From an uncultured Candidatus Saccharibacteria bacterium (GTDB lineage: Bacteria; Patescibacteriota; Minisyncoccia; Phycocordibacterales; CAZKGX01): a DNA stretch of 24,180 nucleotides. The notes under the pieces are model-generated. The model made no database searches. It saw only the letters and a program-made list of their open reading frames with translations, and was not told the origin of the DNA. The stretch spans positions 1,011 through 25,190 of the forward strand of contig CAZKGX010000001.1 of NCBI GenBank assembly GCA_964552645.1, in the 5' to 3' direction. Position numbers and translations under genes: made by a program. Shown piece after piece: positions 5,501 through 20,755 of this stretch (positions are counted from its first letter, which is position 1; the number at the start of each line of letters is the position of its first letter).

Positions 5501-5582
5501 GGGCACGTGGTGAAACTGGTATACACTTACGTCTCAGAAGCGTATCCCGTAAGGGTTGGGAGTTCAAATCTCCCCGTGCCCA
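5501..5582 (+). tRNA. tRNA-Leu(CAG)
   Basis: Acceptor GGGCACG/CGTGCCC, anticodon loop CT-CAG-AA (5535-5537), variable arm CCC-GTAA-GGG, T arm GGGAG-TTCAAAT-CTCCC. Confidence 0.95.
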
Positions 5583-6669: not shown

Positions 6670-6954
6670 ATGTCACACAATACGCTGGTGCTGGGGGAGA
6701 CGGGCATACCATTTGTACGTCTCGTCCACGATATGCCGGATGAGGCACACCTCAAGAGCGATCTTGTGCTCGAAGGGTATTTCAATGATCTCTATAAGCT
6801 CTTTATCCGTCGTTTGGTTGAATTTGAATACGGTGCCACCTTCGATAAAGAAAAGAACGGCAAATTAACCGCTCTCCTGGAAGAGCTTCTACGCATTAAA
6901 GAATTCATTATTAACGGCCGCAAATCAGACAGACCACCGAGCCCTCAAAGATAG
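6670..6954 (+). CDS. hypothetical protein (about 94 aa)
   Basis: ORF fills the gap after radC with plausible helical composition. Start is 6640 or 6670. Its 3' end overlaps the convergent PLP gene by 44 nt. Confidence 0.5.
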   Translation: MSHNTLVLGETGIPFVRLVHDMPDEAHLKSDLVLEGYFNDLYKLFIRRLVEFEYGATFDKEKNGKLTALLEELLRIKEFIINGRKSDRPPSPQR

Positions 6955-7810
6955 TCCCTTCATCGAGGGCTTTCATGAGGGCAGCTACTGATAAGGCGCT
7001 ATTTGCAGAAAGTGTAAGGCCGGTTGTCTTGAGGGCCAGTGCCTGGGCCGCTTCGATTTCAGCATTGTTGATAATCCAGCACGATCCACCAGAATGGCCG
7101 ACGGCATCGGCTACAGCCTTGCGTCGATGGCCAACTCTATCGACAATGGCGCGAGCAACGGACTCTTCTTTGTGTGTATGTAAAAGGCTGACGCACGACT
7201 CGGGATGATAGGTAGTGCCCCAATATTCGGCGATAGGGTGGCAGGATGTGGTCTGGGCTATATTGAGCTCAACCTTTGGAAGGTGCGCAGCAAGGGCTTG
7301 TGCCGTAGTGCCTGAAGAGGCTGCGATAAAAATAGCCTGGAGATTCGGTATAGCCTTCAATTCCTCAGCAAGCGCAGCGTATCCTTCAAGGGCAAGGTCG
7401 TCAGTGGATTGGCGTAGCGGTGTGCAGCCATGTTCTTTTACGTAGTGCGCCATGGCTTGGAGGGGGCGCTCAACTTTTTCCACTGTTATGTGTGGGTCCT
7501 GTATTTCATTTAAAAAAGAAGCCTTGCTCTGATCGATATGATTGCCAATAAAAATCTTCAAAGAAAAAGGTGTGTCTGGCTGCGTCTGTGTATTGAGAAG
7601 GGTAATGTGAAGCGCTGCGGCAAGGGCGGCATTTCCCGAGCTTGCTATGCAAAACGCACGCTTGCCTTGGGCGGCATAGGTATCGATCATATGCGGCAAT
7701 GAGCGACCTTTATGTGATCCATAGGGATGCAGGTCTTCACGCTTAAAGAACACAGCAGGCACGGCAAGCGCAGCGGCAAGGGAGGGGAAAAACTGATGCG
7801 GCGTAATCAT
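6911..7810 (-). CDS. PLP-dependent fold-type II enzyme (threonine synthase/cysteine synthase superfamily)
   Basis: FFKREDLHPYGSHKGR (PLP lysine), ASSGNAALAAA, AASSGTT phosphate loop, SANSALSVAAL, VVCLICGR end. Confidence 0.88.
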   Translation of the reverse strand: MITPHQFFPSLAAALAVPAVFFKREDLHPYGSHKGRSLPHMIDTYAAQGKRAFCIASSGNAALAAALHITLLNTQTQPDTPFSLKIFIGNHIDQSKASFLNEIQDPHITVEKVERPLQAMAHYVKEHGCTPLRQSTDDLALEGYAALAEELKAIPNLQAIFIAASSGTTAQALAAHLPKVELNIAQTTSCHPIAEYWGTTYHPESCVSLLHTHKEESVARAIVDRVGHRRKAVADAVGHSGGSCWIINNAEIEAAQALALKTTGLTLSANSALSVAALMKALDEGTIFEGSVVCLICGR

Positions 7811-7849
7811 ACTCTTGTATCCTACAACGTTTCGGGTATCATAGGAAGC
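7811..7849. promoter_or_regulatory. 39-bp divergent promoter region
   Basis: TATCAT (+, 7837-7842) is 7 nt before ATG 7850. TAGGAT (- strand) is 8 nt before ATG 7810. Confidence 0.45.
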
Positions 7850-8029
7850 ATGTCAAATACACATACCTGCACCTGTCCTGAGTGCAAAAACGATATTGAT
7901 TTGTCCCGCTATCCAGACCTTGCTGTTGGCCATATTATTGAATGCAACGTATGCGGCATTACCCTTGAGATAAAAGAGAAGCCTGAAAACGGCCCTCTCA
8001 CTACAGAGATCGTCGATGAAGGGAAATAG
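7850..8029 (+). CDS. LysW-like Zn-ribbon small protein (59 aa)
   Basis: CPECKNDI..L.VGHIIECNVCGITLEI matches the LysW pattern (CPEC..GE.v.C..CG..LEV), but the C-terminus is EIVDEGK, not EDWGE. Confidence 0.8.
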   Translation: MSNTHTCTCPECKNDIDLSRYPDLAVGHIIECNVCGITLEIKEKPENGPLTTEIVDEGK

Positions 8030-8032
8030 CTC

Positions 8033-8078
8033 TAGAAAAGTAAAAAGTAAAAAGTAAAAGGTAAAAAGTACGAGAGGG
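8033..8078 (+). repeat. heptamer tandem repeat, copy C
   Basis: TAGAAAA GTAAAAA GTAAAAA GTAAAAG GTAAAAA GTA CGAGAGGG, between two convergent stop codons. Confidence 0.8.
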
Positions 8079-8095
8079 CCCAAATAAGCAGAGCT

Positions 8096-9655
8096 TTAGC
8101 GCTGCAATTTTTTGACGGCCTCTTCAATCATGCCACGGAAGCCGTGTGAGCCGAGGAAGACAATTGCTATGCGCGGTGTTTCGGTACCTCCTTTTGCTGC
8201 TGCCTGCGCTTGGGCGTACTCAATTGCTTTTGCCACCAAGGCCTCATCATCTTCTATGTATGATGTATGGGTATGCGTGCGCGCTATGGTCGCGCAAAGC
8301 TCCGGGCCCTCTATAGGCTGATCCTCAGGCTTTGCATCAAAGTCGATTTTCAATTTAGTGAGGCGGGGAATAAAGACGTGCGCGGCATTTTTGAAGGCAT
8401 GATCGTATTTGTCGGCCGTACTCTTTTGACGTCCGCCAATATTGGGTTCAAAGATGGCAATTAAGCCGTCAGTATAAACTTCACTTAAACTCTCAAGGCA
8501 AGCCGCGGCTTTGTCGGGGGTAGGGGCATGCGCATCAATGACAGAAATGCCACCGCCGCCATGCTGCATACCATCAAGGCGTCGCTCGAGACGTCGTTTA
8601 ATACCTTGGAAGCGCGCTATAGCAGATACGATACTTTCGGCTGCCACGCCAATGCTATGTGCCATGGCAAAACAGCCAGCGATGTTTTCAACATTGTAAC
8701 GGCCAAGCATCGGGCTCTCTATGGTGTATTTTTTGCCACCATGCACGATGTCGAAGCTAGTGCCCTTAGTGGTGTGATGCACATTTTCATACCGATAAGC
8801 AGCATGAGAATCCTTGCCGTATGTGATGGGGCGGATATGCTCACTCTCAAGTAATTCCATGAGAGCCTCATCATCAATGCATGCGACGATGGTGCGATTG
8901 CTCTGTGGGGCAAGTGTTGGATGTGTTTCTGCTAAGGCCTTTGCATTTGCAGCCGTCATGCGCACCAGTTTGCGGAAGGCCTCCATATAGTCCTCTAATG
9001 TCGGGTACAGATCAGCATGGTCCCATGCAAGGCCAGTCATGAGCAGGTGGGTAGGGGCATAGTAAAAAAACTTTGCATTCGGATCGTCGGTGCCGCTCTT
9101 GTATTCATCGCCCTCAAGGACGCTGACAGTGCCTTTGCCAATCAAGGCAGAGAGATCGTGTGAGAGGGAGACGCCTCCAAACATATAGCTTGGATCATAG
9201 CCTGCCTCAAGAAGTATAAATGAAAGGATGGCGCTGGTTGTGGTTTTTCCCCATGTGCCAACGCAGACGATGGATTGTGGCTGTATAAAATAGGCATGCA
9301 GTACCTCAGTGTACGAAACAATAGTGAGGTTGTGCTCGCGCGCATATGCTGTCTCTGGGTTGTGGCTCCCTGAAGCAGTGGCAACGATGACCAGATCCGG
9401 CACGCCATGAGCGACCATTTTTTCAGGGTGCCATCCGGCATAGAAGGGCACGCCAATGCGCTCAAGCTGGGTGGAAACAGGTGGATAAAAGCCTTTATCG
9501 CTTCCTGTAACCTTCACCCCCGCTCTGTGGAGAGCGCAGGCAAGGGCACTTGAAAGCACGCCGCATACACCAATAATATGCACATGCCCAGGCAGGGCAC
9601 GTGGCAATGGCGGCTGCTTTCTATCGCTTTCGTTTTGTGGATTGTGATTAGGCAT
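8096..9655 (-). CDS. Mpl/MurC-like Mur ligase (519 aa)
   Basis: HVHIIGVCG..VTGSDKGFYPPVSTQL (Mpl-like N-terminus), GTWGKTTT P-loop, EGDEY, DHADLY, GRYNVEN, IKRRLE. ATG 9655 overlaps the upstream stop. Confidence 0.88.
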   Translation of the reverse strand: MPNHNPQNESDRKQPPLPRALPGHVHIIGVCGVLSSALACALHRAGVKVTGSDKGFYPPVSTQLERIGVPFYAGWHPEKMVAHGVPDLVIVATASGSHNPETAYAREHNLTIVSYTEVLHAYFIQPQSIVCVGTWGKTTTSAILSFILLEAGYDPSYMFGGVSLSHDLSALIGKGTVSVLEGDEYKSGTDDPNAKFFYYAPTHLLMTGLAWDHADLYPTLEDYMEAFRKLVRMTAANAKALAETHPTLAPQSNRTIVACIDDEALMELLESEHIRPITYGKDSHAAYRYENVHHTTKGTSFDIVHGGKKYTIESPMLGRYNVENIAGCFAMAHSIGVAAESIVSAIARFQGIKRRLERRLDGMQHGGGGISVIDAHAPTPDKAAACLESLSEVYTDGLIAIFEPNIGGRQKSTADKYDHAFKNAAHVFIPRLTKLKIDFDAKPEDQPIEGPELCATIARTHTHTSYIEDDEALVAKAIEYAQAQAAAKGGTETPRIAIVFLGSHGFRGMIEEAVKKLQR

Positions 9656-10460
9656 CGGGAGAAGAGGTCGAAATGGCAGCTGTTTGCTGATCGTGCGCAT
9701 CAATACCCATATCATCTTCTTTTTCTTGGCCAGGCACTTGCGGCAATTCGGCCAGGATTTTCTTCAGGGCCGCCATATCAGTCTGCCAGCGTTCGCCATC
9801 AAACCATTCCGCCCCGGCGAATTGCAACTTATACGTATCGCTCGGGCGCTGCAATGATCCAAGGTATATAAACTCATGCCCGCTTCCTTTTGCCCACTCC
9901 ACGGCCTGCGTCATCATGGAAAGGCCAAGGCTTGGTAATTCACGCTCTGCAAATCGGCGATTATAAAACGGATAGCTATAGTGAAAGATGCGCTGCGTTC
10001 GCAAGCCAATGCAATAGCCGATCGCTTGCTGATTCGATTCAATGACGCTGCGATAAATAAGAAGGGTATTAAAGTCGGTCGAGCCGAGCACACTCATGAT
10101 CTCCCGCACTTTATTTGCACTAAAGGTATCGGCGCCAAATTTCTCGGTATAAAACTCTTTGGCCATTTTGTGTATGGTCCAATGGTAGCGCTCATAGGGG
10201 AGGCCGGTGGTTTCAAAGGCTACGCCGCGCTCGGTGGCTTTGCGCATAATGCGGCGATTTTCGCTTGAAGGCGCATATTCAGAAAGGCGAATGCGAAGGC
10301 TACGTGTTTTATTAAAAATACCTTTCCCGACGCGAGTGGCAACGTACCCTTCATCGTAGAGGCGTTCAATGGTGCTGGCGGGAAGTGGAGTCTCTGGTGG
10401 TAGACCAGGCGGCACGTCGATTTTTTTAGTGTCCCAATTCAAATAATGATTTGAAGCCAT
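9648..10460 (-). CDS. Bpt/ATE-like aminoacyl-tRNA-dependent transferase (GNAT-like, 270 aa)
   Basis: RSLRI..Y.PSSENRRIMRK, YPFYN..SLG..M...V.WAK..G..FIYLG...YKLQF...EWF, resembling Bpt/ATE C-domain motifs. Start at MASNH (10460) is inferred. Confidence 0.72.
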   Translation of the reverse strand: MASNHYLNWDTKKIDVPPGLPPETPLPASTIERLYDEGYVATRVGKGIFNKTRSLRIRLSEYAPSSENRRIMRKATERGVAFETTGLPYERYHWTIHKMAKEFYTEKFGADTFSANKVREIMSVLGSTDFNTLLIYRSVIESNQQAIGYCIGLRTQRIFHYSYPFYNRRFAERELPSLGLSMMTQAVEWAKGSGHEFIYLGSLQRPSDTYKLQFAGAEWFDGERWQTDMAALKKILAELPQVPGQEKEDDMGIDAHDQQTAAISTSSPDA

Positions 10461-10540
10461 TGTGGTGTCTGTAGTGCTCTTTAGTATATAGCAGGTTGGG
10501 CAAATTGGCATTAAAAAAGAGAAGGAAAAGAAAAGAGGGG

Positions 10541-10677
10541 AAAAGAAAAGAGCGCCACTGAGAGCGCTCGTGTCCTCATGTGCGAGGACGGGGAAGGAGG
10601 GGGAACACGACATTCCACTTGTGTAGGGGAGAATGGTGGCCCAACCCCTGTCCCGAAGAGAGCTGTTCTCAGTGGCT
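10541..10677 (-). ncRNA. candidate structured ncRNA (about 125-137 nt)
   Basis: 10-bp closing stem GCCACTGAGA/TCTCAGTGGC (10554-10563 with 10667-10676), internal helices, promoter placing +1 at about 10677, and a U-rich tail. Confidence 0.7.
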
Positions 10678-10683
10678 AGGTGT

Positions 10684-10692
10684 ATTATACCA
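10684..10692 (-). promoter_or_regulatory. consensus extended -10 promoter
   Basis: TGGTATAAT on the - strand, 7 nt before the start of the ncRNA stem. Confidence 0.75.
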
Positions 10693-10798
10693 CAGAAAGA
10701 CTTAAAAAACAACCGGTCCTTCCCTTGGGGAAAGTGTAGAAAACAAGAGGAAAAAGAGGGGAGACAGAAAGGGGGAAACGGAAGAGGAGCAGGGTGGC

Positions 10799-11998
10799 TT
10801 AATGAAGGGCAATCCAAATACCCAAAATAACCCCCGCCAAATGCAGTATCCAGAAGCGCATGACGGTCTTTTCCTCACTCCAACCCTTAAGCTCGAAGTG
10901 ATGATGAATAGGGGCCATTTTGAAAATGCGACGACCGGTCAAATAGCGGCCTGCTATTTGTATGAGCACTGAGCCGGCTTCAACGAAGAACATGCAGCCA
11001 AGCAAAGGCAGCACTACCATGAGGTTGAGGGCGAGCGTATTGATAGCAAGAAGGGCGCCCATGGCAAGTGATCCCACATCGCCCATCTGGAAACGAGCGG
11101 GCTTTATATTGAAATACGTATAGGTGATCAAGGCACCCACAGCGGTGGCATTCAAAATTGCCATAGCAGGGAAGCCGGCAATCCATGAGAGAAGGGTGAG
11201 GGCGCTAAATGTCGGTATAAGCATGCCTCCGGTTAAGCCGTCCATACCATCGGCAATATTTACTGCATTGGCGGTAAACATCACCACAATAATAATGAGC
11301 GGAATAATGAGCCAGTCTATATTGAGGGGGCCGTGGAAGGGGACATAAAGCTCGCGCCACTGCGCTCCCAATTTAAAATAAATCCACCATGCGGTGAGCG
11401 CTCCAGCAGCAAATTGCAATATAAGTTTCTCATGCACATGTACGCCTTTGCCTGGATGCTTTGAAAGCATAGTAGCGGCGCGGCGGAATAGCGCCCAAGG
11501 CAAGGTTACTATGTACCACAGGCGCATATACCACACTTTGTGTACGCGAATGAGGGTAAGAATCTGTGATACTTTGCGCGAGCGGCGTTCTTTGCCAAAA
11601 ATATTGAGCACATCGTCCACGCCACCAAGGGTAGCTGCTATGAGCATGACGCCAATCGGCACCCATGTGAATTGACGCTCCCAATTAAAAAAGACCGTAA
11701 TGAGCGCAATAGTAATAACAATCAGCAGGCCTCCCATAACCGGAGTGCCAGCTTTCGTGCGGCGCCCTTCAATGCCAAGTGACACATCGCGATTATCAGA
11801 GCGGACGAGGCGGTATTTATAAAGGAAGCGCGTCAAAAGCGGCGCCCACATAAAAGCGACGATGCATGCAAAAAGGGCAAAAGCCAGACTTTCGGCAAAA
11901 TTAGCAGTAAAACCCTGCGTCGAAAAAAGGTGAGAACTGAAGGTTGGGGGGAAGGAAACGGAGATATTTGTTATGGTCTCAGTAATGGGTGACATCAA
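10799..11998 (-). CDS. mraY: phospho-N-acetylmuramoyl-pentapeptide transferase with long loop insertion
   Basis: GTPVMGG, GGVDD, NAVNIADGMDGL, FNIKPARFQMGDVGS and FKMAPIHHHFELKGWSE motifs; about 10 TM helices. Confidence 0.93.
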   Translation of the reverse strand: MMSPITETITNISVSFPPTFSSHLFSTQGFTANFAESLAFALFACIVAFMWAPLLTRFLYKYRLVRSDNRDVSLGIEGRRTKAGTPVMGGLLIVITIALITVFFNWERQFTWVPIGVMLIAATLGGVDDVLNIFGKERRSRKVSQILTLIRVHKVWYMRLWYIVTLPWALFRRAATMLSKHPGKGVHVHEKLILQFAAGALTAWWIYFKLGAQWRELYVPFHGPLNIDWLIIPLIIIVVMFTANAVNIADGMDGLTGGMLIPTFSALTLLSWIAGFPAMAILNATAVGALITYTYFNIKPARFQMGDVGSLAMGALLAINTLALNLMVVLPLLGCMFFVEAGSVLIQIAGRYLTGRRIFKMAPIHHHFELKGWSEEKTVMRFWILHLAGVILGIWIALH

Positions 11999-12034
11999 GG
12001 CTACTGTAGCAGAAATGGGCCAAAAAATGAAGGA

Positions 12035-14263
12035 TTATTTGCGTAATCGCTGCAGCTTCACAAAGCTCTTTCCTATGTATTCGCTGAGCTGTTTGCTTGG
12101 GGCGAGCGTGCTCTCATCTCCATCAATAGGGCACTCTTTCCAATTATTTTTTGGATCGTCGATGGTGGTTGCTTCTGGTGCAATGGTAACTTCGCCAAGC
12201 CGCACGCCATGCTCATACATACCGTCACTTGGCCATGCAATACTGTGGGCAAATGAAATGCGTCCCGGTGCCACTTTATAAACAAAGAGAATATGATCGC
12301 GCGCTAAGCCGGGAATGCGCGGCATGGCATCATTATGCATCATGGTAATAACATCGCCGGGACGTACTGCTCGTAGCGGTATCTCAATACTATTGTCTTT
12401 CGAAGCGAGGACGGCTACGCTCGCATTTTCGACTGCACGAAAACGGGTAATAAGGCGGCGCAGGAGCGAGACGCCATTCCATGAGAGCCAACCGGTCCCA
12501 CCGCCAAGGGGGCCGCGGCCGCGGGCACGTGATTCGGTGTCGAGAAGATGATAGACAAAGCCCGAACAATCAATGCCAATATTGTGGTCTACAAGGAAGG
12601 TGCGCGCTTCGGCTTTTGACCAGAGGGTATAGGGGCGGCGTTCGCGAATGGCGGCCAATTCTGCCTCTTCAAGAATTTCTGTGGCCGTTCCTTTTCCAAT
12701 CCATGCACGCAGACCCGCACGCATGCCGCTGCGGCGATTGTTGTAGTACGGCACAGCGATTTTCGATGTACCAAAGGGGAGGGCAAGATAGTTCTGCAAT
12801 GCCACTTCTGTGTCGCGCATAAGGCAATGCTGCTCAAGAGCGCTTTTTACCAGTCCGGCAATTGTATTGCCCAATGAACTGAGCTGCACCTTGTGATCCT
12901 CGATCTGTATTTTTTTAATAACACTTTCACCATATTGCATGCGAATGAAGTCGCTATTCTCGGCGGTATTGTGTTCGTAGACGACAAATCCAAGCGGTCG
13001 TATACGTGCGCGTTCAAGACTTTCACCAATGGCTACGGCCATAGATGCGCGCAGCATTGTATTGGCGCCGGCATAGTTTGATGGCATGCGTACGATGATC
13101 TGGCTGCCGCAGGAAAGAGTCTCGACTTCTGGGAGTATGGCCTGTATATCTTGCAGTTGACGGAGGTGCGTATCAAAAATAGTAGCTGAGGCAATGGCAC
13201 TACCTTTCTGCGTCATAGCCGCTCCATGCGCAGGTGAAAGAGCGCAACGCTTTTTTTCCTGCAGCTTTGATTCAAATGAAACAGAGGCGGGCTGGCGGGC
13301 ATTTATTTCAATGAGATAGATGCGGGCGCGCTTGTCTTTTGTATGATCGCTCTGTGCACCGTGATTGCTGTGTGCGCCATCGGCACTTTTTCCTATCATG
13401 AAGTCAATGCCAAAGAGGCCTTTCCATCCAGCATGATGCATACGCGCAGCGACTGTATCGATGAGTCGCAATGCTTCATCGTGCAGATCGGGGTGTTTCT
13501 TGAAAAATGCATGAGCAGCACCCCAATCATTTCCAATAGTGCTCCATGCATGTGAAGTAAAAGGTGCCCGCCCGGTAATCTGATAGCTTATCCCTGCGCA
13601 GAGAGCGTGACCGTCTTTTGTGGCAACGATATTGGCAGTAAAGGTGTGCCCTTCAATGTATTCAACAATGCGCGCCTCGCGAGCGGGGAATTGTGTCTTG
13701 AGCTGTTCGAACTCGGTTTTGTTTTGTATGAGGAGCGTGCCGTCGCCGGTATGGCCATGTGCCCATTGCAGTATAAAAGGAGCTTGCCATGTGGCGGGCA
13801 GAGCGGCCAGCTGCCCTGTCCAATGGAGAGGGAGGTAATGCGTCAAATTATTTTTCGCAAACCACGCCGACTGCTTTACTTTATTTTCAATTTCTTCAGC
13901 AAGGAGAGATGATGGATTGAGGAGATTGAGATTGTGTTCGCGACAAAGACTTTCGATTTTACTGGTGGACTTAAATACGACAAGGTCAGCATTGCGCGCA
14001 CGTATCCAGGCGAGGGCATGAGGGTCGGACAGGAGCTCGTAAGTATCGCGCATATCGTGCTGTCCTTCCGGCGCCTCAACAATGAAGACGTCATTGGGAT
14101 AGCGCTCTGCTATAGAGCGGGCATACGTATCATCGCTTGTCACAATGCCGTAATCGGCGCTCGGCATACGCCCAAGTGCGCGCTCAATTTCGCGCGCCAC
14201 GTAGACAAGGCCACGACTATCGAAATCGCCCCCTGCAAGGCCTTTTTTCTTGCTTCCTTCCAT
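12035..14263 (-). CDS. ATP-grasp ligase fused to a C-terminal NlpC/P60-like cysteine peptidase domain (742 aa)
   Basis: ENK, PFILQ..HGHTGDG, EYIEG, GLFGIDFM and YLIEINARQ (ATP-grasp). GIDCSGFVYHLL..DHI..FAHS (NlpC/P60). Start MEGSKK at 14263 follows TATAAT. Confidence 0.82.
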   Translation of the reverse strand: MEGSKKKGLAGGDFDSRGLVYVAREIERALGRMPSADYGIVTSDDTYARSIAERYPNDVFIVEAPEGQHDMRDTYELLSDPHALAWIRARNADLVVFKSTSKIESLCREHNLNLLNPSSLLAEEIENKVKQSAWFAKNNLTHYLPLHWTGQLAALPATWQAPFILQWAHGHTGDGTLLIQNKTEFEQLKTQFPAREARIVEYIEGHTFTANIVATKDGHALCAGISYQITGRAPFTSHAWSTIGNDWGAAHAFFKKHPDLHDEALRLIDTVAARMHHAGWKGLFGIDFMIGKSADGAHSNHGAQSDHTKDKRARIYLIEINARQPASVSFESKLQEKKRCALSPAHGAAMTQKGSAIASATIFDTHLRQLQDIQAILPEVETLSCGSQIIVRMPSNYAGANTMLRASMAVAIGESLERARIRPLGFVVYEHNTAENSDFIRMQYGESVIKKIQIEDHKVQLSSLGNTIAGLVKSALEQHCLMRDTEVALQNYLALPFGTSKIAVPYYNNRRSGMRAGLRAWIGKGTATEILEEAELAAIRERRPYTLWSKAEARTFLVDHNIGIDCSGFVYHLLDTESRARGRGPLGGGTGWLSWNGVSLLRRLITRFRAVENASVAVLASKDNSIEIPLRAVRPGDVITMMHNDAMPRIPGLARDHILFVYKVAPGRISFAHSIAWPSDGMYEHGVRLGEVTIAPEATTIDDPKNNWKECPIDGDESTLAPSKQLSEYIGKSFVKLQRLRK

Positions 14264-14273
14264 AATTAGAGGC

Positions 14274-14279
14274 ATTATA
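14274..14279 (-). promoter_or_regulatory. -10 box for the ATP-grasp::NlpC gene
   Basis: TATAAT on the - strand, 10 nt before ATG 14263. Confidence 0.5.
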
Positions 14280-14287
14280 GCGCATAT

Positions 14288-15118
14288 ATGGCTATATTTC
14301 ATGTACATGATGAAGAGGGTGGTGGAGAGGGTATTGTGGACGAAAGCACCGAGGCTCATTCACCACATGCTTCGAGAGAAGGAAAAGATGGAAAGGCAGC
14401 AGCGCCTACGCTCTTTATCGTCGGTACACCAATTGGCAATCTCGAAGATATTTCTCTGCGAGCACTTCGTATTCTAAAAGAAGTAGACAGCATTGCCTGC
14501 GAGGACACGCGCATGACTGCAAAAATTCTCTCTCATTACAATGTGCGTGGCGATCAGGGTAATAAAGGCCGTCTCATAAGTTATCATGCACAAAGCGTGC
14601 CGGAAGTGGCCGAGCGCATCCTTTCATTACTTGAAGAAGGGAAGTCTATAGCGCTTGTATCTGATGCGGGAACGCCAGGTATTTCAGATCCTGGCACTGA
14701 GCTTGTAGCTCGTGTGCGCGAGCGGTTTGCTGTGGAACTTGCTGAAGGGAGCATACGTATTGAAGCGGTGCCTGGTCCATCGGCACTCACCGCTGCGCTT
14801 TCAATTGCAGGAGTGCCATGCGCGGACTTTGTCTTCCTTGGTTTTTTGCCGCATAAGAAAGGCCGACAAACATTATTTAATGAAATAGCACAGGAGCAGC
14901 GCACTGTTGTACTCTATGAATCGCCGCATCGCATTATGAAAACATTGGCTTCACTTACTGAACTTCTTGGTCCAGAAAAGAAAGTAACCATTGTGCGCGA
15001 AATATCAAAAATATACGAAGAAGTGCTCACGGGCACAGCAAGCGAGCTTGCCGCAGTCCTTACAAGCAATCCACAGAAGCAAAAGGGTGAATTTGTTGTT
15101 ATAATCAGTACATCATAA
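14288..15118 (+). CDS. rsmI: 16S rRNA (cytidine1402-2'-O)-methyltransferase
   Basis: TLFIVGTPIGNLEDISLRAL, ACEDTR, ALVSDAGTPGISDPG, VPGPSAL, FLGFLPHK, YESPHR, REISKIYEE, KGEFVV. N-terminal extension of about 40 aa; start uncertain. Confidence 0.95.
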   Translation: MAIFHVHDEEGGGEGIVDESTEAHSPHASREGKDGKAAAPTLFIVGTPIGNLEDISLRALRILKEVDSIACEDTRMTAKILSHYNVRGDQGNKGRLISYHAQSVPEVAERILSLLEEGKSIALVSDAGTPGISDPGTELVARVRERFAVELAEGSIRIEAVPGPSALTAALSIAGVPCADFVFLGFLPHKKGRQTLFNEIAQEQRTVVLYESPHRIMKTLASLTELLGPEKKVTIVREISKIYEEVLTGTASELAAVLTSNPQKQKGEFVVIISTS

Positions 15119-15121
15119 TCT

Positions 15122-15760
15122 ATGAATGATGCACCTCTATCACCTCGTCCTTCTCGCAATCTAAGAACGATTTCGCTCTTGGGTCTTATTAGTGCACTGA
15201 TACCTTTTTTCGGTATTCCTTCATCAGCAAAAACAACTCTTACGTTTGCTATCGGCATCGCTATTTTTTCAGTGGCCTTAAGCTCTGAGTCTGGTGCTGT
15301 CGTAAAAAAGATTTTGAGCTATTCGCATCCACGTCTGCGCCCACAGAGAAAAGAGCAGCACGGTGCTGGCGGTCTTGAAACCATTCACAATGTCGAAGCA
15401 GCGAAAAACGTTGCTGCTATGGCCACTTTTGATACGCTTGAAGCGGCTGTTACAGAGACGGTGGGGGTCCATCCGACGGCACACATTGAAGCGGCACATG
15501 TTATACCTCACGGTACTGGTTTAGGTCATATGGAGCACGCTCACACAACGCCAGCCACCACTCCGAGCTCTCCTGCAATCGCAATCACGCACACAAAACC
15601 CCGCGCCCCTCGCAAGCGCCGTGTTGATACGGTGGGCACAGGGGCGCATCCTACTATTGCTAGCACTGCTGCACCAACCAATGATACACCATCATATCCT
15701 GAGCGCCCGCACACAAGCACACCTTCTTCGACCACTACTAATCGTCGCATGAGAATATAA
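15122..15760 (+). CDS. hypothetical protein: two TM helices plus a His/Thr/Pro-rich disordered tail
   Basis: Hydrophobic hairpin at aa about 17-54. 3 nt after the rsmI stop, and its stop overlaps the next ATG. Confidence 0.75.
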   Translation: MNDAPLSPRPSRNLRTISLLGLISALIPFFGIPSSAKTTLTFAIGIAIFSVALSSESGAVVKKILSYSHPRLRPQRKEQHGAGGLETIHNVEAAKNVAAMATFDTLEAAVTETVGVHPTAHIEAAHVIPHGTGLGHMEHAHTTPATTPSSPAIAITHTKPRAPRKRRVDTVGTGAHPTIASTAAPTNDTPSYPERPHTSTPSSTTTNRRMRI

Positions 15761-17052
15761 TGGATTTTTTGGAGAAGACCCAGCGCAAACAAAGGGCATT
15801 TTTGAAGTGGATACAGCGCCGAAAAAAGGCGTCACCACTCTCGGGGGCAAAAAGCAAAAAGGCGCGAGCGGCGCTTTTCCTCGACGCCATTCCAGGACTC
15901 ATCGTTCTCATCGCTTTTGCTGCTTTTCTTTATCTAAACTATGTGACATTGCCTGAAAAATATGCCCTGCGACATACGCAGGCTGATCTTCAACAATATG
16001 CTCCACATACGCGAGGTGTCACTCATATAAATACACCGCACCAGGTAAAGGCTATCTATATGTCGAGTTGGGTTGCTGGTACAAAAAACATTCGTGAGCG
16101 TCTCATAAAGTTGATGGACACGACAGAAATTAATGCTGTCGTCATTGATATTAAGGACTATACCGGCAAGATTTCTTTTGAAGTGCATGATCCAGAACTC
16201 CTTAAAGAGGCGCCTGTGGAGCGTCGCATCAAGGATCTTGGCGCCCTCATCGGCGACCTGCATAAGCGAGGTATTTATGTTATTGGGCGCGTAGCAGCAT
16301 TCCAGGATCCACATATGGTGGCACAGTATCCTGAATTGGCCGTGAAAACACGAGATGGCAACATCTGGAAAGATAGAAAAGGTATTTCATGGATTGATGC
16401 TGGCGCACCGCAAATGTGGAAATACCTCGTTGCTATTGCCAAGGAGTCATATGCGCAAGGCTTTGATGAAATTAACTTCGACTATATACGTTATCCTTCT
16501 GATGGCGATATGGCCGATATGGTGCTTCCTATTACCGGTACGCGACCAAAGCACGAAGTGCTCGGTAATTTCTTTGCATATATAAAAAGTAATATAAAAG
16601 GCAAGCAAACGTACGACGGTCTTGGTAATCCAAAATCTCAAAAAGGGAAGGGCCCGGTCACGTCAGCGGATATTTTCGGTATGACCACTACGTCGCACGA
16701 TGATCTCAATATCGGCCAGCGTTTGGAGGATGCTCTCAAATATTTTGATTATGTGGCGCCTATGGTCTATCCATCTCATTTTCCAGCGCAGTATATGGGC
16801 ATAGCAAGTCCTGCTCATGATCCATATGCCACTATCAAGGTAAGTATGGGCACGGCCGTGAGTCGTGCAAAGGCCGCAAGCACCTCACCTGAAAAATTAC
16901 GTCCATGGCTACAAGATTTTAATCTTGGTGCCGTCTATACACCAACTATGGTGCGCGATCAGATTCGCGCTACCTACGATGTCGGCCTCACTTCTTGGAT
17001 GTTGTGGGATCCAAATAATCGTTATTCTGAAAGCGCACTTCTGCCGAAATAA
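15760..17052 (+). CDS. membrane-anchored putative glycoside hydrolase (DUF4015-like TIM barrel)
   Basis: VKAIY, NAVVIDIKD..G, GFDEINFDYIRYP, SADIFG, DYVAPMVYPSHF, LRPWLQDF, WMLWDP.N.Y; one N-terminal TM helix. Confidence 0.85.
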   Translation: MDFLEKTQRKQRAFLKWIQRRKKASPLSGAKSKKARAALFLDAIPGLIVLIAFAAFLYLNYVTLPEKYALRHTQADLQQYAPHTRGVTHINTPHQVKAIYMSSWVAGTKNIRERLIKLMDTTEINAVVIDIKDYTGKISFEVHDPELLKEAPVERRIKDLGALIGDLHKRGIYVIGRVAAFQDPHMVAQYPELAVKTRDGNIWKDRKGISWIDAGAPQMWKYLVAIAKESYAQGFDEINFDYIRYPSDGDMADMVLPITGTRPKHEVLGNFFAYIKSNIKGKQTYDGLGNPKSQKGKGPVTSADIFGMTTTSHDDLNIGQRLEDALKYFDYVAPMVYPSHFPAQYMGIASPAHDPYATIKVSMGTAVSRAKAASTSPEKLRPWLQDFNLGAVYTPTMVRDQIRATYDVGLTSWMLWDPNNRYSESALLPK

Positions 17053-17140
17053 AACAATAAGAAGAAAAAAGGGCGGAGTATGCTCGTCTCGTCCCTTCAT
17101 TTCCTATTCACTTTTTCTTTAACGGAATTTCATAGCAATC

Positions 17141-17149
17141 TGGTATAAT
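17141..17149 (+). promoter_or_regulatory. extended -10 promoter
   Basis: TGGTATAAT, 8 nt before ATG 17158. Confidence 0.6.
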
Positions 17150-17157
17150 AGGTCGGA

Positions 17158-19089
17158 ATGAACAGTGGATTGTTTGATGAGAATAAAGTCACCTATTTCG
17201 CGGAGACAGATTCACGTAATCGCCGTATGCGTTTTGGTATTAAACGCAAAGATCGTTCTCGTCATATGTATGTCATCGGCAAGACAGGTATGGGTAAATC
17301 AACCCTGCTTGAGAATCTTGCTGTGCAAGACATACAAAATGGCGAAGGTATGGCCTTCATCGATCCTCACGGTAAGAGCGCAGAATTACTCCTCGAATAT
17401 GTCCCTGAAGAGCGCATAAAGGACGTGGTGTATTTTGCGCCCTTTGACATGGATAATCCCATTTCATTCAACATCATGGAGGATGTTGGTGCTGATAAGC
17501 GCCACCTCGTGGTCAATGGCCTCATGAGTACCTTTGAGAAGATCTGGGTCGATGCCTGGTCTGCTCGCATGGCCTATATTTTAAGTAATACACTCCTCGC
17601 TCTCCTCGAATTTCCAAACTCAACCCTCCTTTCGGTGAATCGCATGCTCTCCGACAAAGAGTATCGCAAGCTTGTCGTCGACAATGTCACTGATCCATCA
17701 GTAAAGTCATTCTGGGTAGATGAATTTGCAAAATACACCGATCGCTTTGCCGCAGAAGCAACGCCTGCTATCCAAAACAAAATCGGTCAATTCACCTCTA
17801 ACCCCCTTATTCGCAACATCATCGGTCAGCCAAAATCATCCTTCGATCTGCGCAAGATCATGGACGATAGGAAAATCCTGATCGTGAACCTTTCAAAGGG
17901 TCGTGTAGGTGAAGGAAATGCCAATCTTCTTGGCTCAATGATTATTACCAAGCTCTATTTGGCAGCTATGTCGCGCGCCGATCGTAGCGAAGATGAATTG
18001 AAGAAGCTTCCGCATTTCTACCTTCATGTCGATGAATTTCAATCATTTGCCAATAAATCATTTGCCGATATTTTGTCCGAGGCGCGCAAGTATAAGCTGA
18101 GCCTCATAATGGCGCATCAATACATTGAGCAAATGGAAGAAGAAGTGCGTGCAGCCGTCTTTGGTAACGTCGGCACTATGACTGTCTTTCGTGTAGGTGC
18201 GTACGATGCTGATGTGCTCGAAAAAGAATTTGCACCGCAATTTACCGCTGAAGACCTCGTCAATCTTGGCATTTTCCAAATTTATTTGAAGCTCATGATC
18301 GATGGGGTAAGTTCGCGGCCATTCTCCGCAGTGACTATGCCGCCTATACCTCGGCCAGAGCGTATTTTTAAGGATGCTGTGATTGCTATGTCGCGTACGC
18401 AGTTTGCACATCCGCGTGCCCTTGTTGAAGAGGAAATTCGCAAATGGCATGAACCTATTGCCGTTGTATCAGATAAGAAAAATAAGACGGATGGTGCACA
18501 GAGAAAAGAGGGGAGAGAGGGAACGGTCTTTGTGCCCGCAGCACCTTCGAGTTCAAAGACATATGCTCCTACAGGGCATCAGGGAATGCGATCGGGTACA
18601 GGTGTCACCGCCGAACATAGCCGCTCTCAAACAAGTGCCCCTCGTCCGGTGCATGCTTCGGCACATGCACCAGAAAAGAATACGTCCGCTGCCCCAGCCG
18701 AAATGCGTACGCAAGAGCACCACTTTCCATCGACGCATTCGCATTCTCTCCCACATGAGGCCAAGCCAGTATCTTTGAATGCATTGAAGCAGACGCCTGC
18801 AAAAAATGACGGCAAATCTCGCTCGCCTGAAAATGTATCAGCGCTCAAAGCTGCTCTTGCTTCCGTATTAAAGGATAAAGAGAGCGAGGAAAAAGCATTT
18901 CACCATAAGCCGCATCATGAACAAGGGGAATCTGTTGTTTTGCCACCAGCACCGTCAATAACACCATCTACACCTGTAGCACCTCCACACGGCATGACAC
19001 ACACCTCACATCAAGCACCAACTCCGGCAGCCACACAACCACAAGGTCCCTCAGAAGAAGAAATACAAAACATCCTCCAAGGTAGATAG
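17158..19089 (+). CDS. VirD4/TraD/TrwB-like (HerA/DUF87-type) P-loop ATPase with disordered C-terminal tail
   Basis: HMYVIGKTGMGKS (Walker A), FIDPHG, LHVDEFQSF (Walker B), SEARKYKLSLIMAHQY. About 200 aa of low-complexity tail. Confidence 0.9.
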   Translation: MNSGLFDENKVTYFAETDSRNRRMRFGIKRKDRSRHMYVIGKTGMGKSTLLENLAVQDIQNGEGMAFIDPHGKSAELLLEYVPEERIKDVVYFAPFDMDNPISFNIMEDVGADKRHLVVNGLMSTFEKIWVDAWSARMAYILSNTLLALLEFPNSTLLSVNRMLSDKEYRKLVVDNVTDPSVKSFWVDEFAKYTDRFAAEATPAIQNKIGQFTSNPLIRNIIGQPKSSFDLRKIMDDRKILIVNLSKGRVGEGNANLLGSMIITKLYLAAMSRADRSEDELKKLPHFYLHVDEFQSFANKSFADILSEARKYKLSLIMAHQYIEQMEEEVRAAVFGNVGTMTVFRVGAYDADVLEKEFAPQFTAEDLVNLGIFQIYLKLMIDGVSSRPFSAVTMPPIPRPERIFKDAVIAMSRTQFAHPRALVEEEIRKWHEPIAVVSDKKNKTDGAQRKEGREGTVFVPAAPSSSKTYAPTGHQGMRSGTGVTAEHSRSQTSAPRPVHASAHAPEKNTSAAPAEMRTQEHHFPSTHSHSLPHEAKPVSLNALKQTPAKNDGKSRSPENVSALKAALASVLKDKESEEKAFHHKPHHEQGESVVLPPAPSITPSTPVAPPHGMTHTSHQAPTPAATQPQGPSEEEIQNILQGR

Positions 19090-19113
19090 TTTTTATTAGG
19101 CTATTTATTTCTT

Positions 19114-20748
19114 ATGCATACCTCTTCGCTTAGAGTGTGTTTTCGTTTTACCTGTTCTTTTTTGATCTCGCTGTTTTCTTTAGCTATTCCATATCATGTG
19201 TATGCTTTGAAGATTACTGAAATTATGTTTGATCCGCCCGGGGCGGATACAGGGCGGGAATGGATAGAGGTTTTTAATGATGCTTCAGAGGGCAATACGC
19301 CACTTGCTATTTCTTCTCTGGACCTTAAAGAAGCAGATACGCGACATAAAATCGAAAGTCTCCCTGCTGGAATGCGCGATACAGTAGCAAGCACCATAGA
19401 CCCCCAAAGCTATGCCATTATTGCGGATAATAGTAAGGCATTCCTCATTGATCATCCCGATTTTCAAGGAAGTCTTTTTGAAAGCTCTTTTTCTCTGAAA
19501 AATGACGGAGAGCCTGTTTCGATTATGATCGGCGATGCTATTACTGATACGGTGAATTGGAATAAAGGCGATGCTGATGCTGTGGCAACGAAAAATGCGC
19601 AAGCAAAACAGCAGGCACGCTTAGATCTCCATTATTCGCTGCAATACACTGAAGGAAATTGGGTAATTGCTGAGGCACATCCCGGTAGTGGTACTCTGGT
19701 CCAGGCGCACGATTCCACTTCCGACGCACCTCCATCATCTGAAGAGCCGCATACAAATACTTCGTCAATTACGGTGTCGGAGGGTGCGGCTTCTCCACTG
19801 TCTGTTTCGCCGTTCCCAGACTCTACAACTGCCAATCACAATAGCACCGCAACGCGTTTTCCTGTCGAGCCACAGATATTTGCTCATATCACCACACATC
19901 CTGATACTAAAAACGCCATATACATCGGCGTGCCGCAATTGTTTGCCGCGGAAGCATTAGGGCTCAAGAAAGAGCCACTTTACAATGCTCGCTTTATTTG
20001 GAATTTCGGCGACGGCACGACCGTGGAAGGTAAAAATGTAATGCATGTCTATGCAGCTCCTGGCACGTATGTAGTCTTTCTTGAGGTGGGGGCAGGAGAG
20101 TGGAGTGCTATGGATAGGGTAACGTTCTCTGTGGTGGCACCTCTTTTGTCTCTTTATAAAAACATTTCCTCAGAGCATGGGGAGAATTGTACGGTCCACA
20201 ACGATGGATCGTCATACATCGATATATCAGGCTTTCTTATGCGGGATGAGCGTGCCCTCACGATGTCTACGTCCTCTGCGCCAGCGTCATCATCAAACGA
20301 TAATGGTCTCACAGCACCGCTTGCTTTCACATTTCCTATAGGCTCTCTCATTGCGCCGCATGCATCTATCTCCGTACCTGTGTCTGCCTGCTATGGCGAT
20401 ATGCGAGCGGTTAATAATATGCCCATTGCGCGCCTCACCACAATCAAGGAAATAGCAACATCGTCAGCGGCAGCAGTTACAGCTGTGTCAGTATCTCCAC
20501 AGAAGAAACCTCAACCCTCTCTCAGTCCTCCACATGTATCTGTTGTGCCGAAAAAAAGCGTCACACCAGCGCCGCGCAGCACGCCAGCACCAGTGCATGA
20601 TGCACAGAGCGTTGCGGCCGGTAATGCTGCATTGGCTCATAGTAAAAACAGAGAAGTACAACCACAAATGACCCTCTTTGTAGTCATGGGACTATGCCTT
20701 ATAGCCTCCTTGGGCATCTATTGGAAAAAAGCCTCATTCGGGCTATGA
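19114..20748 (+). CDS. secreted/surface protein with lamin-tail (LTD) and PKD domains and a C-terminal TM anchor
   Basis: Signal-like N-terminus; LKITEIMFDPPGADTGREWIEVFN (LTD); FIWNFGDG..HVYAAPGTYVVFL (PKD); partial second LTD (IDISGF..FTFP.GSLI); C-terminal TM followed by WKK. Confidence 0.85.
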   Translation: MHTSSLRVCFRFTCSFLISLFSLAIPYHVYALKITEIMFDPPGADTGREWIEVFNDASEGNTPLAISSLDLKEADTRHKIESLPAGMRDTVASTIDPQSYAIIADNSKAFLIDHPDFQGSLFESSFSLKNDGEPVSIMIGDAITDTVNWNKGDADAVATKNAQAKQQARLDLHYSLQYTEGNWVIAEAHPGSGTLVQAHDSTSDAPPSSEEPHTNTSSITVSEGAASPLSVSPFPDSTTANHNSTATRFPVEPQIFAHITTHPDTKNAIYIGVPQLFAAEALGLKKEPLYNARFIWNFGDGTTVEGKNVMHVYAAPGTYVVFLEVGAGEWSAMDRVTFSVVAPLLSLYKNISSEHGENCTVHNDGSSYIDISGFLMRDERALTMSTSSAPASSSNDNGLTAPLAFTFPIGSLIAPHASISVPVSACYGDMRAVNNMPIARLTTIKEIATSSAAAVTAVSVSPQKKPQPSLSPPHVSVVPKKSVTPAPRSTPAPVHDAQSVAAGNAALAHSKNREVQPQMTLFVVMGLCLIASLGIYWKKASFGL

Positions 20749-20755
20749 TAGGGCC

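Follow-up and report, generated by a model that had tools for sequence, protein, structure and literature searches.

A conserved Patescibacteria gene block as a possible alternative entry to peptidoglycan stem-peptide synthesis

The gene block and its conservation

The DNA analysed here, called the window below, is a stretch of 24,180 nucleotides (contig C1:1011-25190; GenBank CAZKGX010000001.1) from an uncultured Candidatus Saccharibacteria bacterium whose assembled genome of 636 kb, in 76 contigs, is 89% complete. It contains a block of genes around mraY that an earlier note, made from the sequence alone, had read as an undescribed system for tailoring or salvaging peptidoglycan stem peptides. 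On the reverse strand lie an open reading frame (ORF; 12035-14359) for a fusion of an ATP-grasp ligase with an NlpC/P60-type cysteine hydrolase, mraY (10799-11998), a gene for a 270-aa homologue of the ATE/Bpt aminoacyl-tRNA transferases (9648-10460), a gene for an Mpl-like UDP-N-acetylmuramic acid (UDP-MurNAc) peptide ligase, labelled X (8096-9655), and a gene for a pyridoxal 5'-phosphate (PLP) fold-type II enzyme (6911-7810). A LysW-like Zn-ribbon mini-protein of 59 aa, a candidate carrier, is encoded on the forward strand at 7850-8029, convergent with the ligase gene and divergent from the PLP enzyme gene. The real start of the fusion protein is probably M29 (14275) or M33 (14263). The earlier note had placed all six genes correctly. 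It was also right about the 39-bp spacer between the two divergent genes (7811-7849, from the gene coordinates), about the 8-nt overlap of the ligase and ATE-like genes, provided that the ligase starts at M21 of its long ORF, and about the lack of any other division and cell wall (dcw) gene beside mraY, the flanks encoding RsmI, a DUF4015 protein, a TraG-like ATPase, RadC and pyruvate kinase.

The closest relatives of the window proteins all come from Patescibacteria, under the labels Taylorbacteria, Magasanikbacteria and Paceibacteria. A scan of one genome per species yielded 355 relatives of the ATE-like protein; the best 80 loci, each with 10-kb flanks, were then searched by tblastn with the window proteins. 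Beside the ATE-like gene we found genes for MraY in 78 of the 80 loci, the ligase in 76, the LysW-like protein in 69, the NlpC/P60 hydrolase in 67, the PLP enzyme in 66 and the ATP-grasp ligase in 64. The order and orientation of these seven genes were constant in the 80 loci, all from other species; in 66-69 of them the LysW-like gene runs towards the ligase gene and away from the PLP gene. The genes that flank the block in the window were recovered much less often (pyruvate kinase in 22, RsmI in 21, DUF4015 and TraG-like in 18 each, and RadC in 6). With the seven genes kept in 64-78 of 80 loci against 6-22 for the flanks, the arrangement goes far beyond chance, and the block is a functional gene block and not residual synteny. 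The earlier suggestion of a conserved, undescribed module tied to peptidoglycan precursors is thereby supported, and literature searches found no description of the block.

Properties of the encoded proteins

Sequence-only searches of the PDB with the ATP-grasp, ATE-like and NlpC/P60 parts returned nothing significant, so structure prediction was needed. For the ATP-grasp domain (12848..14275, reverse strand), PF02655 scored 19.4 bits against a cut-off of 23.2 and is a precomputed match on many homologues. The AlphaFold2 (AF2) model of the whole fusion had a mean confidence (pLDDT) of 88, and a Foldseek search with its N-terminal part retrieved PurK and biotin carboxylase (E 3.6e-15, probability 1.00) as well as BesA and L-amino-acid ligase (E ~1e-15), confirming the ATP-grasp fold. 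The cytoplasmic C-terminal domain (12035..12847, reverse strand) had no Pfam match, the NlpC/P60 Pfam model being silent on the window protein, and its sequence-only matches were weak (E 0.4-1.6). Modelled alone, these C-terminal 270 aa reached a pLDDT of 91. Foldseek gave weak matches to CHAP amidases, and in a VIA-align comparison with 48,161 chains the best 24 were all NlpC/P60 D,L-endopeptidases (Z 7.2-10.6), headed by MepS (Z 10.6) and a gamma-D-glutamyl-L-diamino acid endopeptidase (Z 10.0) and followed by CwlO, LytE and RipA/B. Cys94, His185 and His201 are invariant in 26 sequences, as are the PY(F/Y)NN and GKG motifs of an N-terminal extension of ~90 aa that belongs to this domain. Together with the VIA-align result, the invariant Cys-His-His set identifies the C-terminal domain as NlpC/P60, as the earlier note had named it. 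Members of this family usually cleave gamma-D-Glu-diamino acid bonds.

Fusion of the two domains is the minority form. ATP-grasp and NlpC/P60 are encoded by separate neighbouring genes in 61 of 63 related loci, and ~45 fused homologues exist. In five genomes the pair lies away from mraY, elsewhere in the genome, and is still adjacent. The ATP-grasp protein was considered as a substitute for Ddl and rejected, the Ddl C-terminal domain (PF07478) being present in 45 of 50 block genomes and in 27 of 31 relatives; 36 of the 45 matching block genomes have it at E 1e-39 or better, as is typical of Ddl.

The LysW-like protein contains a LysW-type Zn-ribbon domain (PF21344, 33 bits against a cut-off of 27) and stays under both equivalog cut-offs (TIGR01206, 20.5 against 53.2; NF041070, 28.6 against 75). 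The family has a length of ~54 aa, and its gene is separated from that of the PLP enzyme by a median of ~82 nt in 66 related loci. The tail ends in (D/E)EGK-COOH in 66 of 66 readable loci (xDEGK in 65, VEEGK in one), whereas the last residue of known LysW proteins is Glu. Opposite the LysW-like gene, an ORF of 76 aa on the reverse strand (7853-8083) has no family match and was taken as spurious. The PLP enzyme matches PF00291 at 99.8 bits (cut-off 35), and all 26 sequences compared keep its S-H-K Schiff-base lysine motif and its SSGN and SSGT loops. In a PDB profile search, threonine synthase came up at 3.6e-17, and Ser/Asp racemases followed with 1e-8 to 1e-9. The threonine synthase model TIGR00260 scored 36.5 bits against 167.1, and all other NCBIfam equivalogs were likewise far under their cut-offs. 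The protein thus forms a distinct fold-II family, with threonine synthases, Ser/Thr dehydratases and Ser/Asp racemases as its nearest relatives. It is unlikely to substitute for alanine racemase, since Alr co-occurs in 3 of 5 genomes tested.

The ATE-like protein has 957 homologues, up to 58% identical and all from Patescibacteria. These begin at the residue equivalent to M120 of a longer, TTG-started ORF (to 10817), which was discarded. NCBIfam arginyltransferase models match the protein at E 4e-9, and PF04377 and PF13480 match weakly; ATE_C (PF04377) reaches 18.7 bits against a cut-off of 25, and the PRK01305 models reach 22-36 bits against cut-offs of 170-267. Relatives do pass ATE_C, the one at locus L091 with 41.6 bits and others by precomputed matches, and ESM features put the window protein itself in ATE_C clusters. 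The arginyltransferase-model matches and this clustering agree with the earlier assignment of the transferase as ATE/Bpt-like. No FemAB family matched it, only Acetyltransf_6 at its cut-off (22.0 bits). In Bpt and Ate1 a basic pocket binds an N-terminal Asp or Glu, a conserved Tyr-Lys pair common to FemX serves in catalysis, and a His lies near the CCA end of the tRNA; ATE-like and Fem enzymes have a common fold and catalytic lysine (PMC9351520). The block family has the invariant motifs RSxR, SENRR, H-Y-x-x-x-F-Y and Y-K, and thus retains a basic RSxR...SENRR..RK block together with the Y-K pair. Both subfamilies of the ATE-like protein keep Y210-K211 and H160 without exception, and the motif context makes these residues putative equivalents of Ate1 Y303/K304/H178. 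The window protein has one Cys in all and none in its N-terminal region, so that the N-terminal cysteine cluster is missing; its C-terminal tail is ~35 aa long.

A second ATE-like subfamily, with 23-28% aligned identity to the window protein, has the same invariant motifs. Its gene follows directly downstream of a gene for the same ligase type; the two overlap by 4 nt or stand 2 nt apart, and the neighbourhood, otherwise different, has PgeF-like, MurA and MurB genes and lacks the other four genes of the block. In the window subfamily the order is reversed, with the ATE-like gene before the ligase gene, and the two overlap or lie <=30 nt apart in 25 of 70 loci. Retention of the coupling in two gene orders argues for a joint function of transferase and ligase. 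At one second-subfamily locus (L092:6049-7608, genome G009), a MurA of 519 aa has an N-terminal HTH_3 DNA-binding domain; its gene adjoins those for MurB, a PgeF-like (Cu-oxidase_4) protein, the divergent ATE-like protein and the Mpl-like ligase.

The window ligase has all three Mur ligase domains and falls below the cut-offs of both the murC model (TIGR01082, 204.9 against 335.1 bits) and the mpl model (TIGR01081, 191.8 against 388.7). Its relatives score 208-293 bits with the murC model and 184-240 with the mpl model. For comparison, six canonical MurCs from MurD-positive relatives score 396-451 and 160-197 bits, respectively, and E. coli Mpl scores 273 and 914. When 50 sequences were placed in a maximum-likelihood tree rooted on MurD, all ligases in it that came from MurD-less genomes, that of genome G001 included, formed one clade (support 97/91) that was sister to E. 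coli Mpl (b4233; 97/99), and the canonical MurCs of E. coli and the six MurD-positive relatives fell outside this clade. An (S/T)AFFDKRSK insertion after DEY is specific to Mpl and missing from MurC-F (PMC3060825). The block ligases carry a 7-residue insertion at this place that aligns with the Mpl signature and with a gap in MurC; it reads (S/T)A.WD...KF in the relatives and SGTDDPNAKF in the window, keeping the signature only in part. A YPP(V/M)ST motif is also common to the block ligases and Mpl, MurC being one residue shorter there. The tree, the insertion and this motif all uphold the view of the earlier note that the ligase is Mpl-like rather than MurC-like.

Two further groups of ligases were seen in the class. 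In seven genomes (G059, G074, G092, G148, G232, G288 and G296), ligases of 449-479 aa match the profile of ligase X strongly over the N-terminal half only (positions 3-252, 280-293 bits) and may constitute a third ligase type; three of these genomes (G059, G074 and G092) are listed without MurD. Members of family f53 (G085, G114, G168, G189, G210, G268 and G319) have MurD and a MurC-type ligase intermediate between canonical MurC and the Mpl-like type, scoring 336-386 bits to the X profile; the one measured with the murC model (G210) reached 321 bits.

Peptidoglycan genes of block-carrying genomes

The block MraY matches PF00953 at 85.6 bits (cut-off 27) and the equivalog model TIGR00445 at 178.3 bits against 192.05, the match being split in two by an insertion. 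No other gene of the genome matches PF00953, so that the dedicated MraY of a side system, as proposed in the earlier note, is not supported. Three Mur-ligase genes are present, namely the block ligase, MurE (contig C31) and MurF (C38), and MurB and MurG are encoded elsewhere. Neither MurA nor Ddl (PF07478) was found, probably owing to incompleteness of the assembly; MurD, a canonical MurC and a DUF1611 gene were not found in this genome either. The earlier note had held that a sole mraY and a full canonical MurC-F set would speak against its proposal. The mraY is indeed single, but the set is not full, as MurD and canonical MurC are missing. Since the only MraY lies in the block and the genome has three Mur ligases, the block comprises core genes and not a second system. 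A block that holds both the sole MraY and the sole MurC/Mpl-type ligase does not fit a side-branch for tailoring or salvage next to an ordinary pathway; it appears to take the place of the first two core-pathway steps rather than to add to them.

The distribution of MurD (TIGR01087) across related genomes points in the same direction. Among 31 genomes of the same order, each from a different family, 17 have MurD, and the ATE-like gene occurs only in five that have none (G000, G027, G009, G018 and G024). Among 301 genomes of the class, 231 have MurD, and the three with an ATE-like gene (G000, G075 and G244) all have none. The ATE-like gene is therefore present in 0 of 17 and 0 of 231 MurD-positive genomes. 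Of 50 block-carrying genomes reached through the block loci, none (0/50) has MurD at E 1e-30 or better, a threshold that the MurDs of relatives pass readily (E 1e-45 to 1e-126). All 50 have exactly one MurC-family match, which is the block ligase (208-293 bits), and single-contig and complete block genomes contain only 3-4 Mur-ligase-fold genes. The NCBIfam MurC cut-off is unreliable class-wide, being passed in only 99 of 301 genomes. The X-ligase profile cross-matches canonical MurC at 240-320 bits, and clearly X-type ligases (545-639 bits) occur in 4 of the 301 class genomes, all four without MurD. Asp/Glu racemase was not found in any of the 5 block-carrying genomes tested.

As the sole MurC/Mpl-type ligase of its genome, the block ligase is therefore essential, and the retention of MurE makes a dipeptide, not a tripeptide, its likely substrate. 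Mpl is reported to use L-Ala-D-Glu and L-Ala at low rates, the former being weakly accepted by the Pseudomonas enzyme (PMC3060825).

Other features of the window were also recorded. The 338-bp spacer between the mraY stop and the ATE-like start (10461..10798) is particular to this genome and missing from most related loci. A structured RNA had been suspected there in the earlier note, and no Rfam family matched it; a T-box or riboswitch 5' of the ATE-like gene, which could have named the amino acid, was rejected on the same search. Two tRNA genes lie at 1163-1235 and 5501-5582 (Rfam 70.8 and 53.2 bits), for which the earlier note had mentioned partial copies upstream. The flank at 14288-23341 is kept in same-order relatives (loci L006, L007, L092, L094 and L096) and encodes RsmI, a small ORF, the DUF4015 protein, a VirD4/TraG-like coupling ATPase (61-75% identity), a lamin-tail/PKD protein and a GT4 glycosyltransferase.

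A possible route to the first two stem residues and its alternatives

The block may serve as the core entry to stem-peptide synthesis in lineages without MurC and MurD, by way of a preformed peptide that is loaded onto UDP-MurNAc; we regard this as a serious possibility, if one a little short of an even chance. The ATE-like enzyme would place L-Ala from Ala-tRNA on the alpha-amine of glutamate to give an L-Ala-Glu dipeptide. The Mpl-like ligase would then load the preformed peptide, most likely L-Ala-D-Glu, onto UDP-MurNAc and so cover both the MurC and the MurD reaction in a single step, after which MurE, MurF and the co-encoded MraY would act as usual; the D-Glu would come from the lysine-tailed carrier, ATP-grasp, PLP and NlpC/P60 proteins. 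The acidic N-termini bound by Bpt and Ate1 and the weak use of L-Ala-D-Glu by Mpl agree with this scheme. Aminoacyl-tRNA transferases add an aminoacyl group to a free amine. For this reason the ATE-like enzyme could not extend the C-terminus of UDP-MurNAc-L-Ala and could not directly replace MurD, and the simplest way for the ATE-like and Mpl-like pair to replace MurC and MurD jointly would be to make L-Ala-Glu off the sugar and then ligate it.

The remaining genes suggest a more elaborate version, which is also its most speculative part. The ATP-grasp ligase might join the gamma-carboxyl of glutamate to the epsilon-amine of the terminal Lys of the LysW-like protein, a chemistry likened to that of D-Asp ligase, with the gamma-glutamyl ligase BesA among the fold matches. 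The PLP enzyme might invert the carrier-tethered glutamate to the D form, as the Ser and Asp racemases among its nearest relatives would suggest, and the NlpC/P60 hydrolase might free the product as L-Ala-D-Glu. The first two stem residues would then be built on a carrier, off the nucleotide sugar, through glutamate tethering, PLP inversion, extension from Ala-tRNA, NlpC/P60 release and loading by the Mpl-like ligase. Such a carrier route to D-Glu draws on the strict co-occurrence of the genes, on the Lys that always ends the carrier tail and on the lack of an Asp/Glu racemase in all five block-carrying genomes tested, and we consider it quite unlikely as a whole.

Several observations weigh against our proposal for the block. 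ATE-family enzymes are known to act on L-residues of proteins and not on D-Glu, and we know of no precedent for a fold-II PLP racemase acting on tethered glutamate or for the use of a D-acceptor by an ATE-type enzyme; all substrates in the proposed pathway are ones that we infer. The divergent ATE-like subfamily (G009, G018 and G024) occurs without the carrier, PLP, ATP-grasp and NlpC/P60 genes. Genome G001 has the same ligase type with MurE and MurF, and lacks MurD, the ATE-like gene, the ATP-grasp gene and the other helper genes, so that the ligase can apparently work without them. The ATE-like gene is not a general answer to MurD loss, as ~66 MurD-less class genomes have neither it nor an X-type ligase, and MurD loss therefore has other causes too. 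Glutamate racemase is uninformative as a discriminator: it occurs in only 2 of 31 same-order genomes, although 17 have MurD, and is thus missing from 29 of 31 relatives with or without MurD. E. coli Mpl sits on a long branch of the ligase tree (2.45), and its sister position could be an artefact. The sampled genomes are moreover related to each other, and the counts overstate their independence.

In a reading close to that of the earlier note, trimming of ready-made peptides could supply the ligase in another way. Stem peptides imported from a host or derived from the cell's own turnover would be cut by the NlpC/P60 hydrolase from L-Ala-gamma-D-Glu-X to L-Ala-D-Glu, in the manner of YkfC-type enzymes, and reloaded by the Mpl-like ligase; MurE and MurF would rebuild the stem, and the ATP-grasp, ATE-like, carrier and PLP proteins would tailor the supply or top it up. 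The hydrolase fold is indeed closest to gamma-D-Glu-diamino acid endopeptidases, the ligase resembles Mpl, a recycling enzyme (PMC3060825), and the genomes are small and probably host-dependent. Salvage of this kind would explain the joint lack of MurC, MurD and glutamate racemase, and also the genomes of the G001 type with the ligase alone, yet it leaves the four strictly co-conserved genes for the ATE-like, ATP-grasp, carrier and PLP proteins without a role. A tripeptide-accepting ligase would also make MurE dispensable, yet MurE is retained, and the conserved block comes without a peptide importer. We think salvage unlikely.

A split of the block into separate functions appears similarly unlikely. 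The ligase would be a divergent, L-Ala-adding MurC, for which the complementation of a murC mutant by overexpressed E. coli Mpl provides a parallel (PMC3060825), although its derived indels are common with Mpl and not with MurC. The ATP-grasp enzyme would replace MurD by adding (D-)Glu to UDP-MurNAc-L-Ala, much as ATP-grasp enzymes such as Ddl and D-Asp ligase join carboxylates to amines in wall synthesis (PMC2922099); however, G009, G018 and G024 have the ligase and the ATE-like protein, no ATP-grasp gene and also no MurD, so the ATP-grasp enzyme is not a general MurD substitute. In the same scheme the ATE-like protein would be a Fem-like bridge transferase acting at position 3, as the fold and catalytic lysine common to ATE-like and Fem enzymes would allow (PMC9351520), but there is no reason why an enzyme that builds bridges should occur in MurD-less genomes only (0/17 and 0/231 among the MurD-positive). 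The LysW-like and PLP proteins would make an unusual wall amino acid and the NlpC/P60 hydrolase would edit errors, a role to which the PgeF-like editing genes adjoining the divergent ATE-ligase pairs would correspond.

Finally, inherited synteny of unrelated housekeeping genes, with MurC and MurD present and too divergent to detect, is very improbable: Patescibacteria proteins are divergent (MurC passes its NCBIfam cut-off in only 99 of 301 class genomes) and the sampled genomes are related, but the flanks are lost (6-22/80) where the seven genes stay together (64-78/80) across Magasanikbacteria-, Taylorbacteria- and Paceibacteria-labelled genomes, unlinked components still co-occur within a genome, the ATE-like/ligase coupling persists in two gene orders, complete genomes hold only 3-4 Mur-ligase-fold genes, and the MurD of relatives is detectable at E 1e-45 to 1e-126.

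The steps of MurC and MurD are regarded as essential to wall synthesis in all bacteria, and both enzymes as targets for antibiotics. The 355 species-level genomes with an ATE-like relative represent a large uncultured group that appears to make lipid I without MurC or MurD, by means of an Mpl-type ligase in permanent coupling with a tRNA-dependent transferase and a lysine-tailed carrier module. If the proposed entry route is true, two alternatives to the early Mur pathway would be known, MurD2/MurL being the first; the ATE/Bpt family would gain a biosynthetic function apart from protein degradation, carrier-protein chemistry would reach into wall synthesis, and the route would bear on the D-glutamate source of host-dependent cells of the Candidate Phyla Radiation (CPR). 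Were the carrier version to hold as well, hundreds of Patescibacteria species would replace MurC, MurD and glutamate racemase by a system that depends on tRNA and on a carrier.

Each part of the block has a counterpart among known systems. The LysW and ArgW systems likewise employ a small Zn-ribbon protein with two CxxC motifs and an acidic, strictly conserved C-terminal tail, and in them an ATP-grasp ligase and a releasing hydrolase co-occur as in the block. The tail of LysW and ArgW ends in glutamate, whereas that of the block protein is DEGK with a terminal Lys; LysX and ArgX are ATP-grasp enzymes of the RimK/LysX type, whereas the block enzyme is of the PurK, biotin carboxylase and L-amino-acid ligase type. 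Genes for LysX/ArgX, LysZ, LysY, LysJ or LysK were not found in the window or in the conserved block, in which the partners of the LysW-like protein are, unlike in the LysW and ArgW systems, a PLP fold-II enzyme and an NlpC/P60 hydrolase. The fusion protein recalls Gss, the glutathionylspermidine synthetase/amidase of E. coli, in which an amide ligase driven by ATP and a cysteine amidase of the CHAP or NlpC/P60 kind are likewise parts of a single protein. The Gsp amidase is present among the fold matches of the block hydrolase; however, the domain order is reversed and the ligase comes from another family. YkfC-type peptidases are cytoplasmic and cut the gamma-D-Glu bonds of free stem peptides; they and the Gss relatives lack the conserved ~90-aa N-terminal extension of the block hydrolase.

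Bpt and Ate1, which have FemX and MurM as relatives (PMC9351520, PMC2922099), are homologous to the block transferase over its ATE_N-like and ATE_C regions, and family membership leads one to expect aminoacyl-tRNA as the donor and an acidic acceptor whose alpha-amine is free; the block transferase is always encoded with the Mpl-like ligase and not with ClpS or N-degron genes. Mpl, described for Psychrobacter and Pseudomonas (PMC3060825) and present in E. coli, has the same three-domain Mur ligase architecture as the block ligase, and the job proposed for the latter, attaching a ready-made peptide to UDP-MurNAc, is the same; Mpl, however, is an accessory recycling enzyme, whereas the block ligase is the sole MurC/Mpl-type ligase of its genome. 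Among published alternatives for this step, the MurD2/MurL pathway of Xanthomonas comes closest; it uses L-Glu and a one-way, ATP-driven inversion in bacteria without glutamate racemase (PMC8788868). Both MurD2/MurL and the block would be alternative solutions to the D-Glu step of stem-peptide synthesis without glutamate racemase. MurD2/MurL, however, keeps MurC and a MurD-type ligase and relies on the epimerase MurL, whereas the block-carrying genomes are without MurC and MurD and use quite different enzyme families.

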